Of a stretch of DNA of 64,000 nucleotides, positions 4,624-27,888 are shown piece after piece. Position numbers and translations under genes: made by a program. The DNA comes from an uncultured Bacteroidia bacterium (GTDB lineage: Bacteria > Bacteroidota > Bacteroidia > Bacteroidales > ML635J-15). Under the pieces are notes generated by a model. That model ran no database searches. It was not told the origin of the DNA and saw nothing but the letters and a program-made list of their open reading frames with translations. The stretch covers positions 48,561 to 112,560 of the forward strand of contig CACYQN010000011.1 of NCBI GenBank assembly GCA_902776565.1, given 5' to 3'. The stretch's first letter is position 1. Every line of letters begins with the position of its first letter.

Positions 4624-5670
4624 TTATTTTTTGTTATTAGCTATAGTCAAACATATTTCATCTCCGATATCCCTTATCATATTAGCGGGTTCGCTGTTCA
4701 TGAATGCTGAACGAATTTTGTTTGCGCTGCGGCGCAGAAATGTACGGAATCTACTTTCTTTAATTATTGTAATTCCGTTGTCTTGTGATTGGTATGCGAA
4801 CAAGTCTTCATCCGAGGCATGGTTCTCTGGTTCTATATTTTCGATAGAATCTGTATTCTCGGTATTTTGTTCTGCGATGTAATTTTTCTCCTCGGTAACT
4901 GGTGAAGCATCTTCTGTTGCAACGTTGTCGAGTTCTGTTTCGGCAATGTCCTGAATGTCATACAATGACGGTTCGACGATGGTGTCGGTGTTGAATGCCA
5001 AAGTTTCGGTCGGTGCGTTGTTGTTTTTATGGGCCTTGGCTTTTCTTTGGAAATACTGTTCTTCCTTTAAGCTGGGTTCTGAATTGTTGGTGTTGCCTAC
5101 GACAATTTCTTCTGTCATATTGTCGGTCTGAGCATCCGCAATTGTTTTATTGTCAATGTGTTGCGAAATGTTGTTCTGCTCGGGATAGGTAATTGTGTTT
5201 TCTCCGTTTCCAAAGGCATTGTATAGGATTATTCCACATGCGGCAATTAGTACTATTGATGCTGCTATGGAAACAGGTCGTAGCCAGATGACTATTCCGC
5301 GTTTCTTCAGGCCGTCCTTGTCTGGGTAGTGTACGTTCATGTCAGGCTTTTGGATTGTAAGCTTGTATGCTTCGTACGACTTATTTACATTCTGATTGGT
5401 TTTTATTTTGGTGTCAATGTATTTTTCGTCTTCTTCCGAAATAACTCCTTCTACCTTTTCGATGAGGAGCCTTTCTGTGATGTTTTCGACCGAAAGCATT
5501 TCCTTTCCTTCGAATTTTGCATCTTCTACGTCGCTGTTTTCGAGCATTGCTATGACATCGGGATTACTCTCGAGGTATGCCATGAGTTCGGCTTCTTCCG
5601 TTTCGGAGAGCTGGCAATCGAGGAACCTCTGCCACATTTCTTCAATATTGCTTTGATCTATCCTTGTCAT
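4624..5670 (-). CDS. anti-sigma factor (single-pass membrane protein)
   Basis: The real start is taken as MTRIDQSNIEEMWQRF... (ATG 5668-5670), which overlaps the sigma-factor stop as ATGA. Has an N-terminal anti-sigma-like helix region, one TM segment (VSIAASIVLIAACGIILY) and a low-complexity C-terminus. The ORF-track version 4624..6024 is over-extended. Confidence 0.6.
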   Translation of the reverse strand: MTRIDQSNIEEMWQRFLDCQLSETEEAELMAYLESNPDVIAMLENSDVEDAKFEGKEMLSVENITERLLIEKVEGVISEEDEKYIDTKIKTNQNVNKSYEAYKLTIQKPDMNVHYPDKDGLKKRGIVIWLRPVSIAASIVLIAACGIILYNAFGNGENTITYPEQNNISQHIDNKTIADAQTDNMTEEIVVGNTNNSEPSLKEEQYFQRKAKAHKNNNAPTETLAFNTDTIVEPSLYDIQDIAETELDNVATEDASPVTEEKNYIAEQNTENTDSIENIEPENHASDEDLFAYQSQDNGITIIKESRFRTFLRRSANKIRSAFMNSEPANMIRDIGDEICLTIANNKK

Positions 5671-6149
5671 AGCGCGTTCTCCATTTTGACGATATAGTCT
5701 TTTAGTACTTTCCTTGCGCGGAAAATGTAAACTTTCACTTGTGTTTCGTTGAGACCTGTGATTTCTCCAATTTCGTTGTAGGAGTAACCTTCGTAGTCTC
5801 GGAGCAGGATGAGTTGACGCTGCTGTTCCGGAAGCTTTGCAAGTGCATTTTCCAGAATTTCCTTCAGTTCGGAGTTGCTGTCGTATTCTCCGGGTTCGTA
5901 ACCGGTACCTATTGCATCTTCTGCCGTGCTGAATTTCTCGTGTCTGGTTACGTCTATCATCCTGTTGTAAGCAACTTTGAACAGAAAAGACTTTGCGTTG
6001 TCGACTTCGTCGCGGTTTGTCCACAGCTTTGCAAAACTGTCCTGCACTATGTCCTGTGCAAGGTCGCTGTCCTTAATGTTCGACAGCACAAAGCGATAGA
6101 CGTTGTCCGCATACTTGTTAACCATAATATTGTAGTCTTCTCGTGTCAT
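5667..6149 (-). CDS. ECF (sigma-70 family group IV) RNA polymerase sigma factor
   Basis: 160 aa. Region-2 block DIVQDSFAKLW and region-4 block LILLRDYEGYSYNEIGEITGLNETQVKVYIFRARK. Confidence 0.85.
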   Translation of the reverse strand: MTREDYNIMVNKYADNVYRFVLSNIKDSDLAQDIVQDSFAKLWTNRDEVDNAKSFLFKVAYNRMIDVTRHEKFSTAEDAIGTGYEPGEYDSNSELKEILENALAKLPEQQRQLILLRDYEGYSYNEIGEITGLNETQVKVYIFRARKVLKDYIVKMENAL

Positions 6150-6300
6150 TGTTCCCTCTTATGACGTACATGCAGTACAAAATGTTACAAAGAAAATGAA
6201 AAAAAATTAAAGAACAATTTTTTTGTTTTGTGTATCACGATTTTAATAATTAGAATTGCCTAATAATAAATTATTTGTATCTTCGCACCGTAGTTTGAAG

Positions 6301-7182
6301 ATGATAAGATTGCTCTCACATAGCGAAATTGATTTTGTCAAGTATGACGAATGCATTGAAAACTCGATGCAAGGCAAAGTGTATGCAATGTCGTGGTACT
6401 TGGATGCGGTTTTTCCCGATTGGTCGGTGTATGTGGTTGGCGACTACGATGTTGTGATGCCTGTGCCACTGAAACGGAAGTTTGGACTTGTGTATGCGCT
6501 TCAACCGCAGTTCTGCCAGCAGCTGGGAATTTTCTCGAAGTCGTGGCTCTCGAAACTTCAGGCACGCGAACTAGTTGGAAAGTTGCCTTTCCTGTATCGT
6601 CTTTGCTTCAATAGCGGAAATGCAGATGTTTGCAATGAGAAAAAGCTTCGTCCAAACTATGTGCTGGATTTGAGTGCCGACTATGAGATTTTGAATGGCA
6701 GTTTTTCCTTGCAGTGCCGTCGCAATGTGAAAAAGGCAAAGACTTTTGTGCAACGGGTTGCCACAATTTCAAAGGACGAGTATCTGTCGTTCCTTTGCGA
6801 AAATGCAGGACAATGGATGGGAAAAGTGCAGGTTCCTGTTTTGACAAGGCTCATCGACAATGCCATTTCGGCTGGTTGTGCCGAGTTGGTGTCTGTCCGC
6901 GATGTGCAGGATAATGTTCTTGCTGCAGTATTTTTTATAAGGTGGGGTGGACGGCTGTATTATCTGTCGCCAGTTTCGAGCGAAAAGGGCAGGGAATGCC
7001 AGTCGATGACTTTCCTGCTGAACGATATTGTTGAGCGTAATGCAAATTCGTCGCTTCTTATCGACTTCGAAGGCTCGGCAATCGAAAGCATAAGGAATTT
7101 CTATGAGGGTTTCGGAGCAAAGGACGAGCCTTATCCTATGCTTGAGAAGAATATGTGGGTAGCGAAGATGTTGGGGAAATAA
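6301..7182 (+). CDS. hypothetical protein, possibly GNAT/FemAB-like acyltransferase fold
   Basis: Start chosen at MIRLLSHSEIDF (6301) rather than 6256. The family guess rests only on general resemblance to Bacteroidetes GNAT-like hypothetical proteins. Confidence 0.35.
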   Translation: MIRLLSHSEIDFVKYDECIENSMQGKVYAMSWYLDAVFPDWSVYVVGDYDVVMPVPLKRKFGLVYALQPQFCQQLGIFSKSWLSKLQARELVGKLPFLYRLCFNSGNADVCNEKKLRPNYVLDLSADYEILNGSFSLQCRRNVKKAKTFVQRVATISKDEYLSFLCENAGQWMGKVQVPVLTRLIDNAISAGCAELVSVRDVQDNVLAAVFFIRWGGRLYYLSPVSSEKGRECQSMTFLLNDIVERNANSSLLIDFEGSAIESIRNFYEGFGAKDEPYPMLEKNMWVAKMLGK

Positions 7183-7394: not shown

Positions 7395-8468
7395 TTATGC
7401 GTACAATTCTTCGAAAATCTTTCTCAATTCCGGGCTTTCGCGGAGTTCCTGGAGAGTGAAATCAGCGTGTCCCTTAGTGTAACCGTTACCAACGATCATG
7501 TTAACATCAGCACCGATACCTTCAGCACCGAGAGCAGCCTTTGTGAAGCTGGTTGCCATTGAGAAGAAGTAAACGATACCATCGTCCTTTGTGCAGAGAA
7601 CAGATGTCATTTCCTGGTCCGGAACATTTACGCAGTTGATAGTTACATCAGCCATCTTGCCGTTTGTGAGCTTTTCAACGAGTTCGTAAATTTCAACTGG
7701 AGTCTTTCCAGCAACGCTTTCAACTACATCGCAGAATCCCAATTCCTTGATTCTGTTGGTTGACTTCGGGCTGTTAGCAAGACCGATAACCTTACCGGTT
7801 ACACCAACGCGCTTCTTAGCTTCGTAGCAGCAGAGCATACCGCTCTTTCCACCTGCACCGAGGATAACAACATTCTGTCCGTACTGGCAGAGCTTTGCAG
7901 TCTGAGCTGGAGCACCAGCAACGTCCAATGCGCTCAAAGCGAGCTTTTCGGGCATGTCGTTCGGAATCTTAGCGTAGATACCGCTTTCGAAGAGGATAGC
8001 CTTACCCTTGATGTCAACTTGGTCAACATCTGGACGGATTTCGAGGATTTCGTCGATGCGGAGAGGAGTAAGTGACAAAGAAACCAAAGTAGCAATCTTG
8101 TCGCCTTCCTTCAGGTCAATCTTGCCCTTCAATGCGTCGCCAATCTTTTCAACGCGGCCGAGGAGCATACCGCCCGAACCAGTACGACGGTTACGGTGCT
8201 TACCCTGCAATTCAACATTGAGGAACATTTCCTTCTTAATTTCTTCCATAATCTTTTCCTGGCTTGCACCTTCGCCTGCCTGCTGCTTAGCGTAGTTGTG
8301 AATGTCGGTGAACGAAGCGGAGTCGATGTTTAATGTCTGAACATCAATAAGGATTTCGTTGTCATAGATTTCGTCCATATTGTTGTCAAGCTTGTTTGCC
8401 GGCTGTGGCAATACGCCCTTCGGCTCTAATACGCGGTGTACACCGTATTTGTTACCTTTCTTCTGCAT
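7395..8468 (-). CDS. kdd: L-erythro-3,5-diaminohexanoate dehydrogenase-like (lysine fermentation Kdd family)
   Basis: 357 aa. Blocks KYGVHRVLEPKGVLPQPA, GSGGMLLGRVEKIGD, DKIATLVSLSLTPLRIDEI, ILGAGGKSGMLC and FFSMATSFTKAALGAEG match my recollection of Kdd from Fusobacterium/Porphyromonas. Confidence 0.65.
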   Translation of the reverse strand: MQKKGNKYGVHRVLEPKGVLPQPANKLDNNMDEIYDNEILIDVQTLNIDSASFTDIHNYAKQQAGEGASQEKIMEEIKKEMFLNVELQGKHRNRRTGSGGMLLGRVEKIGDALKGKIDLKEGDKIATLVSLSLTPLRIDEILEIRPDVDQVDIKGKAILFESGIYAKIPNDMPEKLALSALDVAGAPAQTAKLCQYGQNVVILGAGGKSGMLCCYEAKKRVGVTGKVIGLANSPKSTNRIKELGFCDVVESVAGKTPVEIYELVEKLTNGKMADVTINCVNVPDQEMTSVLCTKDDGIVYFFSMATSFTKAALGAEGIGADVNMIVGNGYTKGHADFTLQELRESPELRKIFEELYA

Positions 8469-8655
8469 TTTGTTTAGTTTTAAGTTGTTATTTAAATTTT
8501 TACAATTCTCTGCAATTTGTCAAGCGACCGCAAAAGTAATATTTTTCTGAAAAAAAATACATTATTCGGGCAAATATTTTTTTCATTTTTTATTGCTTGT
8601 GAATCTGCAACACAAAAAAATCTTGCATCATCGTTGTCCGCGTTATTATTAGTTG

Positions 8656-8663
8656 TATATTTG
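8656..8663 (+). promoter_or_regulatory. candidate Bacteroidetes -7 promoter box (TATATTTG)
   Basis: Exact match to the TAnnTTTG consensus, ~38 nt upstream of the ATG at 8701. Confidence 0.35.
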
Positions 8664-8700
8664 CATTTGCAATTTTGCGCAGAATTTAAAAACATATTTT

Positions 8701-9159
8701 ATGGATAACACCAAATTTACGAAACAATTTGTTGCCTTGACAATGGCTACATTGAGAGCCGATGGCATCATCGAGCAGGTTGAACTCGACACTATCAAGG
8801 AACAGGCTGCCGACTTGGAGCTTGACATGGTAGAAGTTGAAAAGTTTATCGCTGAGGAAAACAACCTCCAGCAGAATGTAAACATCGAAAATTACATCAA
8901 GGAAATCGGTGCTACCGTTGAAAACCTTGGTGACAAGCACTGCATCATGGACGGCTGTATCCTTGTTGCTTTGTCGGACAAGATTCTCAAGGAATCGGAA
9001 GTAAAAGTGCTGAAGTTCGTATGCGAAGCCCTTGGTTTCTCAGTAGAACGCATGGTTCTCGACATTGCTATCATTGCTCAGAACGACCGCAGCATAAAGA
9101 TTGAAGGAAGCGACAGCAACTTCGACGAGATTATTGAAGATGAGGATTACAAAAATTAA
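8701..9159 (+). CDS. TerB-like (tellurite-resistance TerB fold) protein
   Basis: Start at MDNTKFTKQF. Has two ADG/SDK-I-x3-E-type repeats (RADGIIEQVELDTI, LSDKILKESEVKVL) as in TerB-family proteins. Acidic tail. Confidence 0.5.
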   Translation: MDNTKFTKQFVALTMATLRADGIIEQVELDTIKEQAADLELDMVEVEKFIAEENNLQQNVNIENYIKEIGATVENLGDKHCIMDGCILVALSDKILKESEVKVLKFVCEALGFSVERMVLDIAIIAQNDRSIKIEGSDSNFDEIIEDEDYKN

Positions 9160-9171
9160 AAAATTATTGGT

Positions 9172-9420
9172 ATGAAAGCATATAATCAGAACAGTCAGAT
9201 AATGCCATTGTTGATGAATTTCGTTGTTCCTACCGACATAGTTGAGTATGTTCCAACCGAATTCTCATACGATGATGCAAATCAGGTAACATACGAAATG
9301 ACAATCACCAGCACCCGCAGCCTTCGTCACCCTAGCACTCACAAGGGCGGTGAATATGTAGGCGTTGATGCAAAGAACGAAATCGACGACACCAAGAACA
9401 ACCGCCACATGTGGTTCTAG
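9172..9420 (+). CDS. candidate graspetide (omega-ester/amide RiPP) precursor peptide
   Basis: 82-aa ORF, 12 nt after the TerB-like gene and 9 nt before the ATP-grasp gene. The N-terminal PLLMNFV resembles the PFFARFL leader motif. The C-terminal part has a Thr/Ser cluster followed by an Asp/Glu/Lys cluster. Confidence 0.5.
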   Translation: MKAYNQNSQIMPLLMNFVVPTDIVEYVPTEFSYDDANQVTYEMTITSTRSLRHPSTHKGGEYVGVDAKNEIDDTKNNRHMWF

Positions 9421-9429
9421 TCGCGTGAG

Positions 9430-10419
9430 ATGATTCTTATTTACACAAATAAGGAGGATACTCATCCTACCAACGTCATCAAGTACCTGAACGAATGGAA
9501 TGTTCCAGTATTCAGGCTTAACACCGAGTGCATTCTTACCGACTACGAGTTTGAATGGTGGTGCGATGACAGAGGTGTCGATTTCCGCATAAAAAATATA
9601 AAGAACGACCTGCAACTTTTCGGACATGAGATTACTGCGGTATGGGACCGTCGCGCCTTGGTTCCGTCGGAGTTGCCGGTGGTTAACGAACATGACGAGA
9701 TAAACCGCCATAACCTCGACGAGGCTCGCGGTTTTCTCGCTTTTTTGCGCTACTACACAAAAGATATTTTTTCGATAGGTAGCATTGTGGAAGACCGTCC
9801 CGCCGACTCCAAGATGCTGCAGTTGCAGGTTGCGCGTTCGCTCGGAATGCCTACTCCAGATACAAGTTTTGCAAATACCAAGGATGCGGTGCTGAAGTTC
9901 GCACGTAACTACGAGTACATTTCGCTCAAGTCGATTGTCGATAGCGGACTTTTCCTCGGTGGCGACAAGGAATATGTGTTCTTTTCGCAGCGAATCAAAA
10001 GCAGCGACCTTGAAAGTCAGCCCGACGAGGCCTTCTCGCAGACAGTAAGTTTTGTCCAGAACTATATAGACAAGAAGTACGAACTGCGCATTACGGTCGT
10101 GTGCGACGATGTGATTGCCTGTAAGATAGATTCGCAGTTGCAGTCGGAAACCACAGGTAAAATCGACTGGCGGCAAGGCTACGAGCACGACCTGAAGCAC
10201 GAAATTGTGGTAATTCCAGATTTTGTCTCGGATTTCTGCCGAAAGTTCCTGAAGCACATGAAGCTCAATTTCGGTTGCTTCGACTTTATTGTTACTCCAG
10301 ACGATAAATATGTTTTCCTGGAGTGTAATCCCAATGGACAATGGCTTTGGATAGAAATCGTAACAGAGTTTGACATATCCAGGGTAATAGCGGAGAATTT
10401 GGCAAAGAAAGAACGTTAG
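9430..10419 (+). CDS. MvdD/MdnC-family ATP-grasp ribosomal peptide maturase
   Basis: 329 aa. The N-terminus ILIYTNKEDTHPTNVIKYL is typical of microviridin-type ligases. KYELRITVV is followed by DWRQ. C-terminal FGCFDFIVTPDDKYVFLECNPNGQWLW block. Confidence 0.75.
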   Translation: MILIYTNKEDTHPTNVIKYLNEWNVPVFRLNTECILTDYEFEWWCDDRGVDFRIKNIKNDLQLFGHEITAVWDRRALVPSELPVVNEHDEINRHNLDEARGFLAFLRYYTKDIFSIGSIVEDRPADSKMLQLQVARSLGMPTPDTSFANTKDAVLKFARNYEYISLKSIVDSGLFLGGDKEYVFFSQRIKSSDLESQPDEAFSQTVSFVQNYIDKKYELRITVVCDDVIACKIDSQLQSETTGKIDWRQGYEHDLKHEIVVIPDFVSDFCRKFLKHMKLNFGCFDFIVTPDDKYVFLECNPNGQWLWIEIVTEFDISRVIAENLAKKER

Positions 10420-10467
10420 GTTCTGATAAGACAAAAAAATTATTAGTATCCGTTAAATTTTCTATTA

Positions 10468-10630
10468 GTCATTCCACAAAGCAGAACGAACCGACTAAGG
10501 AACGTGTCGTGTGAGTTCGCTTATGCGGAATCTCCTTTAATACAGTTCAATAGCAGATTACGGACAGCAGTATTCACAACGCTCCCCATTCTGTATCGCG
10601 TGTTACAACGAACTTCCGAACCTTTAGCTC
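10468..10630 (-). ncRNA. unclassified conserved structured element, copy 1 (candidate sRNA or MITE-like repeat)
   Basis: The reverse complement aligns over ~155 nt with 27732-27888 (long identical blocks such as acacgcgatacagaatggggagcgttgtga). A 1-nt length difference in the variable hairpin loop breaks any common reading frame. Confidence 0.4.
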
Positions 10631-10767: not shown

Positions 10768-11454
10768 TCACTGTCTCTTAAGCACAAGATTTTCAAATCC
10801 GTATTCGTTTCCATTTTGAAAAGTTCCAGATAGTTTAAGAGAGCCTTTAAATTTCTCAAAATCTGAAACTTCGTAAGTCCATCCTCCGCCTCCCCAAGAA
10901 TCATTGAGAATTACTGTGTCTTCAACAAATCCGTTTGATGTATATTTTGCATAACATGTGTCAATGTCAGTGTGGTTTATCGTAAACACTATCTTGGTAT
11001 TATCATGGCGATTTTCCTTTTTGTATATCTGCCAGTCTCCCCTATATCTTTTCTTGAGAGTTGTTATTAATATCGTATCTGTATTCTCAATAGTATCTAT
11101 ATGCTTGCATATAAGTGTTTTATAAATAGTATTTTCGTCATAGAAATTCAAATTACAATCCTTGGTGTATAAACTTCTTCCGTCTCCATTTTCACTGCTA
11201 TCAGCATTGATAGTCCATGTTTTGTCACTTAATATCTGATTGGTGTTGATGTCAGTTATTAATTCGTGATAATCTAGGTCATTTATCGATGTTGTAATCT
11301 TCAAATGTCCATCCTTTACTATTTCTGAGTTAGATTCCATTATTGCCCATACTCCAAAATAGGTTAGTTTATCATGTTCTGTACGGCGACAATTAGGAAA
11401 TATTACCAATGTGATTATTAATGATACGACTATTGTTGAAATGCGCTTTTTCAT
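10768..11454 (-). CDS. hypothetical lipoprotein
   Basis: 228 aa. Signal peptide with Cys (VIFPNC). AT-rich. No recognised domain. Confidence 0.45.
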   Translation of the reverse strand: MKKRISTIVVSLIITLVIFPNCRRTEHDKLTYFGVWAIMESNSEIVKDGHLKITTSINDLDYHELITDINTNQILSDKTWTINADSSENGDGRSLYTKDCNLNFYDENTIYKTLICKHIDTIENTDTILITTLKKRYRGDWQIYKKENRHDNTKIVFTINHTDIDTCYAKYTSNGFVEDTVILNDSWGGGGWTYEVSDFEKFKGSLKLSGTFQNGNEYGFENLVLKRQ

Positions 11455-27731: not shown

Positions 27732-27888
27732 CATTTCGGAAGCTAGTCGCAACACGCGATACAGAATGGGGAGCGTTGTGAAGACCGCTGTCCGTAATCT
27801 GCTAACATACCTGTTACTAAGCAGATTCCGGATAAGCGAACTCACAAGCAACGTTCCTTTTGCTGTTCGTTCAGCTTTCCGGAATGAC
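27732..27888 (+). ncRNA. unclassified conserved structured element, copy 2
   Basis: Aligns with the reverse complement of 10468-10630. Internal hairpin tccg-t-aatctgct / agcagatt-c-cgga (27791-27832). Possible closing helix catttcggaagc (27732-27743) with gctttccggaatg (27874-27886). Confidence 0.4.

Follow-up and report, generated by a model that had tools for sequence, protein, structure and literature searches.

We analysed a 64,000-nt stretch of DNA from an uncultured Bacteroidia bacterium (contig CACYQN010000011.1, positions 48,561 to 112,560; hereafter the window) and, within it, three plus-strand genes encoding a TerB-like protein, a small protein and an ATP-grasp ligase. A preliminary description made from the sequence had proposed that these genes form a compact operon for a graspetide, a class of ribosomally synthesised peptide that is modified after translation (RiPP). 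The promoter box, the three plus-strand genes and their 12-nt and 9-nt spacers were confirmed in the sequence. The features are as follows (ORF, open reading frame; pN/pS, ratio of nonsynonymous to synonymous polymorphism):

8656-8663, plus strand: Bacteroidetes-type -7 promoter box TAnnTTTG, here TATATTTG, read from the sequence
8679-10472, plus strand (taken from the genes): single transcript over all three genes, from the extent of RNA contigs
8701-9159, plus strand: TerB-like gene, 152 amino acids, with its ATG at 8701, from the ORF call
9160-9171: 12-nt intergenic spacer, read from the sequence
9172-9420, plus strand: ORF of the graspetide-type precursor, 82 amino acids, from the ORF call, its homologue family and pN/pS
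9421-9429: 9-nt intergenic spacer, read from the sequence
9430-10419, plus strand: MvdD/MdnC-type ATP-grasp macrocyclase, 329 amino acids, from the ORF call and from profile and fold matches

In vivo, a single mRNA of about 1.8 kb carries all three genes of the operon. Taken alone, the promoter motif is not beyond chance, with 75 TAnnTTTG matches in the window against 64 +/- 7.5 expected. Contigs assembled from four rumen metatranscriptomes were placed on the locus. RNA contigs of three of these metatranscriptomes start at 8679-8680, 16-17 nt 3' of the box (X25, 8680-10472, 1805 nt; X27, 8680-10415, 1792 nt; X32, 8679-9899), and two of the three are unbroken pieces of about 1.8 kb that end at 10415-10472. 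The RNA depth was zero at 8535-8641 and from about 10675 onward. Both flanking genes lie on the minus strand (7395-8468, an ADH_zinc_N dehydrogenase; 10768-11454, without a Pfam match), which leaves the three genes as a self-contained unit.

Purifying selection acts strongly on all three ORFs. Compared with the four closest loci, the TerB-like gene had a pN/pS of approximately 0.09, the small ORF one of 0-0.045 and the ATP-grasp gene one of 0.05-0.10, and by our own arithmetic the variant positions in the RNA contigs fall mostly at third codon positions of the three frames. Together, the low pN/pS and the third-position variants indicate that the small ORF is translated and constrained. The window derives from a rumen Bacteroidales metagenome-assembled genome (MAG): over the TerB gene, contig CADCCZ010000003.1 matches it at 100% identity, and MAGs from buffalo and yak rumen are 89-96% identical. 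NCBI copies are annotated as J6T48_09090 (ligase) and II060_02660 (precursor). Rfam and tRNA scans of the window returned no matches.

The ligase had been assigned to the ATP-grasp RiPP maturases from its size of 329 amino acids and its N- and C-terminal blocks, ILIYTNKEDTHP and FDFIVTPDDKYVFLECNPNGQWLW, all of which are present in the translation. Pfam placed the MvdD pre-ATP-grasp domain (PF21068) on residues 1-84 with 28.0 bits against a cut-off of 27, together with a RimK-like ATP-grasp domain just above its cut-off (21.4 bits), and the Mg/ATP motif ECNPNGQW is present. Over the full length, the best NCBIfam models were TIGR04187 (E 9.5e-51, 172.8 bits, cut-off 350), MvdD TIGR04184 (E 3.6e-49, 167.7 bits, cut-off 475), MvdC TIGR04185 (E 3.6e-41, 141.3 bits, cut-off 425) and grasp-with-spasm TIGR04192 (E 4.9e-38, 131.2 bits, cut-off 230). 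The search with TIGR04184-like models that the preliminary description had suggested thus gave a strong E value, though a score below the curated cut-off. Sequence matches in the PDB were graspetide macrocyclases only, namely MdnC, MdnB, AMdnB, CdnC, PruB and PsnB. The best of them was MdnC (E 8e-33, 29% identity, residues 4-325 against 5-322), which has the blocks AVWxRR, KxLQLQVAR, ELRITVV, DWR and FLE(C/I)NPxGQW in common with the ligase. When the AlphaFold2 (AF2) model of the ligase (predicted local distance difference test, pLDDT, 88) was searched with Foldseek, 31 graspetide-ligase chains from six enzymes preceded the first LysX, ArgX or RimK chain. Full-length profiles, PDB matches and fold thus all favour graspetide ligases, and they also show a distinct subfamily.

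Clustering with RimK or D-Ala-D-Ala ligases had been named in advance as the result that would speak against this assignment, and the ligase was found to group with the RiPP macrocyclases instead. The corresponding rival explanation is that the enzyme is a RimK-style amino-acid adder or a LysX/LysW-like carrier ligase, with an acidic region in the small protein or the acidic tail of the TerB-like protein as its target, and we regard it as highly improbable. Besides the Pfam RimK match, its signals are weak scores for rimK_fam (E 1e-9, 38.2 against a cut-off of 143.4) and LysX_arch (E 4e-6, 26.1 against 275.6). Both fall below their cut-offs, the RiPP-maturase models are better by 40 orders of magnitude, and the structural neighbours rank alike, with every graspetide ligase ahead of RimK and LysX. 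The ligase and small-protein genes have no amino-acid biosynthesis genes alongside them, which also argues against this rival. A further point in its favour comes from one subclade of the family, in which an M20/M42-like metallopeptidase domain of about 235 amino acids is fused to the C-terminus of the ligase:

L089, 4705-6408: ligase-peptidase fusion, 567 amino acids (P0008)
L090, 801-2504: ligase-peptidase fusion, 567 amino acids (P0008)

The fused domain resembles PepT (E 1.6e-9), has weak M42 aminopeptidase matches in the PDB, and matches a [LysW]-lysine hydrolase model (E 9e-7), thereby recalling the LysK hydrolase of the LysW pathway. Such 567-residue ligases occur, for example, in JAZUHT010000066.1. 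An Ion_trans channel gene follows the fusion gene. The domain is a possible built-in leader-trimming peptidase, and the fusion points to proteolytic trimming in at least part of the family. The family itself is large, with more than 1,300 ligase clusters at 90% identity in metagenomes. Phage and plasmid collections held no close relatives and yielded distant graspetide ligases only, at less than 32% identity.

For the small ORF, the analysis covered 80 loci retrieved with the ligase. In these, a homologous ORF of 70-95 amino acids lies directly 5' of every family ligase where the contig permits (about 60 loci), often overlapping the ligase start by 4 nt, and across these loci the small ORF and the ligase are the only strictly conserved pair. 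A five-sequence profile searched against 1.84 billion representative proteins recovered at least 116 clusters at 50% identity, nearly all of them stand-alone proteins of 76-90 amino acids. Conservation was counted over 102 representatives in window numbering, which delimited three parts of the protein:

9202-9222, plus strand: leader motif M11-P-L-L-M-N-F17, of the Phhx(1,2)h type, with P12 in 100/102 and L13, L14 and M15 each above 70%
9268-9285, plus strand: second leader motif Y33-D-x3-Q38, with Y33 in 102/102 and Q38 in 100/102
9301-9396, plus strand: predicted core, residues 44-75, from the column counts

The leader consensus of the family reads M11-P12-L-L-M15-x-[FCY]-T18, then I23 and Y33-[DN]-x3-Q38. 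Its first part, MPLLMNF in the window, fits the Phhx(1,2)h signature that has been defined for graspetide leaders (PMC8939145). The YDxxxQ motif aligns weakly, at motif level (3-9 bits), with precursors of actinobacterial ATP-grasp systems. The core consensus is R-x-[VI]-G47-T48-[RK]-[SC]50-L-[KR]52, T56, a loop of variable length, and D66-x-K68-N69-E-I-D72-D73-x-K75. T48 is present in all 102 representatives, and the other main columns are T56 (86), D66 (96), K68 (85), N69 (93), D72 (97), D73 (96) and K75 (86). Judged by conservation, the candidate donors are T48, S50, T56, K68 and K75, and the candidate acceptors are D66, D72, D73 and perhaps E70, so that the variable loop between T56 and D66 separates the two groups. 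The proposal that the small ORF encodes a precursor is borne out by a conserved family that abuts the ligase and has graspetide-type leader and core features. Acidic stretches in both small proteins could be taken for targets of a RimK- or LysX-like enzyme, but the conserved acidic block of the precursor is internal and followed by K-x-V-K rather than ending in a C-terminal Glu, and the invariant Thr donors and the leader motif likewise argue against that rival.

From homology, the following mechanism can be proposed. The 82-residue product would be the substrate of the 329-residue ligase, with its leader (MPLLMNF and Y33-D-x3-Q38) docking on the pre-ATP-grasp domain. Using ATP, the ligase would activate carboxylates of the D66-x-K-N-E-I-D72-D73 block as acyl phosphates and join them to the hydroxyls of T48, S50 and T56 as omega-esters, and possibly to K68 or K75 as an omega-amide. 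Since donors and acceptors flank a loop of variable length, the predicted product is a hairpin or stem-loop stapled by two to four nested rings, each of which would lower the mass by 18 Da. Such a long-range stapled hairpin would give the gut microbiome a graspetide scaffold that is new.

The 152-residue protein encoded first in the operon had been described as TerB-like, and both its profile score and its fold agree. Pfam TerB (PF05099) matched it with 35.5 bits against a cut-off of 24.4 (E 1.4e-8), and the AF2 model (pLDDT 91.6) is a seven-helix bundle whose sole significant Foldseek neighbours were 2h5n and 2ou3 (COG3793 tellurite-resistance protein), with probability 1.0. Two paired acidic motifs, D21-G22..E28 and D93..E100, have D21, G22, E28, D93 and E100 invariant. 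Residues ~117-152 (9049-9156) carry the motif A-Q-N-D-R-x-I-K-I-[ED]-G-x-D-x-x-F, invariant in the Bacteroidales partners, and then a disordered acidic tail. This C-terminal motif may be a docking motif. The TerB partners of the distant clades L021, L052, L057 and L060 lack the motif and the tail. The tail was considered as a ligase substrate and set aside on this ground, which also counts against a RimK- or LysX-like enzyme.

We then asked how firmly the TerB-like gene is tied to the precursor-ligase pair. It lies directly 5' of the precursor throughout the window clade and in L021, L043, L052, L057, L059 and L060. Two of these, L057 and L059, are from Proteobacteria and have a ligase 38% identical to that of the window, and L060 is from a freshwater Bacteroidia with a ligase 35% identical. 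Overall, the adjacency recurs in ligase lineages that are 35-58% identical, across phyla, with a spacing of 6-30 nt. In a neighbour-joining tree of the ligase, the loci with TerB occupy basal branches, including the proteobacterial ones, and the window clade, and most clades of Muribaculaceae, Prevotella and Alistipes lack TerB. This distribution suggests that TerB, precursor and ligase were an ancestral three-gene unit with repeated loss. A single-sequence TerB search reached close relatives only, and no TerB block was conserved enough for a profile search of loci. In the reverse direction, all three TerB homologues looked up were found in the order TerB, ORF of 84-86 amino acids, ATP-grasp. 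TerB-like genes are present in approximately 30% of the family loci. The adjacency and the reverse look-ups make the link between TerB and the family real, and the occupancy of about 30% makes it not obligatory.

An alternative is that the TerB-like gene is a mere neighbour that shares the promoter in this clade and is functionally unconnected with both peptide and ligase. Unrelated genes fill the upstream slot in the loci without TerB, and TerB domains are common and promiscuous, which would fit such an arrangement. It is difficult to reconcile with the recurrence of the adjacency at short spacing in divergent lineages of different phyla, with the reciprocal look-ups, with the co-transcription of TerB and the other two genes, and with a co-occurrence of 30.6% in an independent data set (Table S4 of Carter et al. 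2026, discussed below). We consider a purely incidental neighbour quite unlikely. The TerB-like protein is probably an ancestral accessory of the family. Our best guess is that its conserved acidic, metal-binding face would bind the precursor, the product or the ligase, and that the protein would act as a holder, a gate or a self-protection factor, not as a catalyst.

Two side observations concern the slot around the precursor. In L064 (5330-5989), from a Flavobacteriales MAG with a ligase 32% identical, the order is precursor (69 amino acids), a protein of 143 amino acids and ligase. The 143-residue protein has a faint TerB match (E 0.039), and the locus may be a rearranged version of the trio. 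In some other loci, a basic protein of 51-67 amino acids (cluster c23, GxSFSLKRAxGxT..., without a Pfam match) lies directly 5' of the precursor, and in L021 it comes after another TerB-like gene, the second of that locus, 4 kb away from the ligase:

L021, 11057-11679: region with the c23 protein
L020, 1330-1497: c23 protein
L028, 5531-5701: c23 protein
L061, 1905-2060: c23 protein

To place the operon in its wider surroundings, we took a census of 148 flanking proteins of the family loci. The commonest families were PDDEXK_4 (6), GmrSD_N (5), SH3_3 (4) and protein kinase (3), followed by KAP NTPase, dynamin (Dynamin_N), Sel1, PvuRts1I/SRA and an L7/L12-C-terminal protein with two each. Several flanking proteins match PADLOC candidate systems, and small membrane proteins are frequent 3' of the ligase. 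No tailoring enzyme is conserved among the 148 proteins. Since no exporter or leader protease is conserved either, the product may remain intracellular or undergo processing in trans. As a separate observation, the clade of L007, L009, L087 and L091 has a four-gene variant, in which TerB, precursor and ligase are followed by a protein of 250-260 amino acids (for example, L087 5798-6577) that combines a signal sequence with a bacterial SH3 domain and several transmembrane helices. Upstream, this clade has GmrSD-type restriction genes, and PLD, Mrr or Fic genes are close by.

These surroundings raise the question of whether the same chemistry serves another role, namely an intracellular stress or anti-phage module in which TerB, as a predicted metal- or membrane-associated sensor, would gate the ligase, and the stapled protein would act intracellularly, for instance by inhibiting proteases or as a membrane effector, and not as an exported natural product. 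The missing exporter and leader protease are in line with this, as are the very strong purifying selection on the entire small protein, the small membrane proteins downstream (SH3_3 with transmembrane segments, c8, c17 and Ion_trans) and the defence-type flanks, in which PD-T4-6-matching kinases, Mrr, PLD and Fic stand beside GmrSD (5/148), PDDEXK_4 (6), PvuRts1I/SRA (2) and KAP NTPase. On the other side, there is no single conserved defence partner, PADLOC gave no significant match for any of the three proteins, close relatives are absent from the phage and plasmid collections, and the neighbours of the operon in the window are metabolic genes; location in a defence island is in itself weak evidence. 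We therefore regard this role as unlikely. A wider version appears to us about equally doubtful. It holds that the TerB/small-protein/ATP-grasp cassette is an ancient intracellular module of Bacteroidota and Proteobacteria, whose stapled protein is not a secreted natural product but the physiological ligand or client of TerB, with a part in anti-phage defence or in the response to membrane or metal stress. All that it draws on is the lack of export genes and the flanks, which are variable and rich in defence genes. If true, the stapled protein would be the first defined molecular partner of the long-enigmatic and widespread TerB domain.

Our preferred reading, to which we assign a probability of roughly 0.75, is a compact graspetide-type peptide-modification operon with the TerB-like protein as a genuine but dispensable accessory. 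The product of the operon is most likely a side-chain-stapled peptide. TerB is dispensable because about 70% of the family loci lack it, and for the same reason it cannot be required for catalysis in general. Several points weigh against this reading as a whole. For each of the four NCBIfam RiPP-maturase families, the ligase scores under the curated cut-off. Conservation in the precursor is highest in the core, which in many RiPPs is hypervariable, position 50 alternates between Ser and Cys, and the precursor has no GG-type cleavage site. The family loci have no conserved exporter, immunity gene or protease in common. As for TerB, its absence from about 70% of the loci counts here too, and we infer its role from adjacency only. 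For the rings, both number and connectivity are guessed from conservation.

Rumen and gut Bacteroidales, Muribaculaceae, Alistipes, Prevotella and Odoribacter among them, carry the family in abundance. It is expressed in vivo, and no member has been characterised. The recurrent, probably ancestral TerB partner is the unusual part of the operon, and three genes with a defined enzyme and peptide offer a simple system for asking what a TerB domain binds or senses.

Several other features of the window lie near the operon. The preliminary description had noted that GNAT, protease and ABC exporter genes are missing. This stands for the protease and the exporter alongside the operon but not entirely for the first, as 1.5 kb upstream, at 6256-7182 on the plus strand and beyond the minus-strand dehydrogenase gene, there is a gene of the GNAT superfamily (Acetyltransf_6, E 4e-5). 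Relatives do not keep this gene next to the operon, so it is probably unrelated. Further upstream, an extracytoplasmic function (ECF)-type sigma factor with Sigma70_r2 and r4_2 domains (5667-6149, minus strand) overlaps a long ORF downstream of it (4624-6024), in which its anti-sigma partner could be encoded, a pair unrelated to the operon. Downstream, a dispersed intergenic repeat of about 150 nt occurs at 10468-10620 and, on the opposite strand, at 27735-27888, the two copies being 82% identical. Many short rumen metatranscriptome contigs match just its part at 10468-10538 with unrelated sequence on both sides, so this repeat sits in many contexts. It is not present 3' of the ligase in the close relatives L001-L004, has no Rfam match, and folds no better than shuffled sequence (z -0.87).

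Among known systems, the operon has the features of the graspetide class, namely an MvdD/MdnC-type ligase with a pre-ATP-grasp domain and an adjacent precursor with leader, donors and acceptors. A counterpart is found in a recent RODEO census that enlarged the graspetides to 43 groups (Carter, Ramesh, Saad, Mubarik & Mitchell 2026, ACS Chem Biol 21:698, PMC13097080). Table S4 of that paper lists an uncharacterised "Group 31" of 49 predicted biosynthetic gene clusters (BGCs) in which TerB PF05099 co-occurs at 30.6%, Sel1 at 20.4%, protein kinase at 18.4%, dynamin at 18.4% and PF14281, a PD-(D/E)XK family, at 16.3%. The same families emerged independently from our loci (TerB at about 30%; PDDEXK_4 6, Pkinase 3, Dynamin_N 2 and Sel1 2 of 148), a correspondence at the level of the neighbour profile. 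Group 31 as tabulated differs in size, with 49 BGCs against more than 1,300 ligase clusters (90%) and at least 116 precursor clusters (50%) in metagenomes. The main text describes the extra proteins of group 31 as domains of unknown function or as lacking a hidden Markov model match and does not discuss TerB, nor is TerB among the graspetide-associated families listed by Makarova et al. 2022. Our literature search found no paper combining "graspetide" and "TerB". The suggestion that TerB is an undescribed graspetide context thus holds for the main literature searched, but the co-occurrence was already present in Table S4. The operon is a further member of a catalogued, never laboratory-studied family, in which the TerB partnership has been tabulated and never discussed.

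With the microviridin system MdnA/MdnB/MdnC (graspetide group 1; 5ig9, 5ig8), the operon shares its closest solved-structure relative, MdnC. Both leaders have a hydrophobic helix motif after Pro (PFFARFL there, MPLLMNF here), and both cores have Thr/Ser/Lys donors and Asp/Glu acceptors. The operon differs in having one ligase instead of two, no GNAT, ABC transporter or TxKxPSDx(E/D)(E/D) core, and a longer precursor in which donors and acceptors are about 20 residues apart. Scores below the TIGR04184 and TIGR04185 cut-offs, the absence of PFFARFL and of the core motifs, and the single ligase place it outside the microviridins. The SAV_5884-type (TIGR04187) systems, which include graspimiditides such as fuscimiditide and amycolimiditide, provide the best NCBIfam model for the ligase. 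In their precursors, too, the leader has a YDxxxQ motif and the C-terminus an Asp cluster, a similarity at motif level only (3-9 bits), and the product expected here would likewise be a stem-loop stapled between two strands. These systems are actinobacterial, whereas the window is from another phylum, and the ligase reaches 172.8 bits against their cut-off of 350. Neither the window locus nor the 148 neighbours include the PIMT-type O-methyltransferase (TIGR04188), so no aspartimide is expected in the product. The operon also falls outside the grasp-with-spasm systems, with 131.2 bits against 230 and no SPASM or radical-SAM family among the commonest neighbours.

On the side of TerB, the ter-operon protein and the structures 2h5n and 2ou3 have the same fold and paired acidic motifs as the protein here. 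No other ter genes (TerA/C/D/E/Z/Y) are close to the operon, and its TerB forms a dedicated subfamily travelling with a peptide ligase. A precedent for a partner that binds or stabilises comes from rosaritide (MirA/MirB/MirC), whose graspetide synthetase, as reported in PMC13097080, needs the non-catalytic MirC. MirC is a PpiC-type peptidyl-prolyl isomerase/chaperone-domain protein that is strictly conserved in its group, whereas TerB is unrelated to it in fold and occurs in about 30% of the family only. In both systems, the ligase is accompanied by a conserved non-ligase protein that does not look like a tailoring enzyme, and the recent discovery of graspetide ligases that need a partner protein makes the question of TerB timely.

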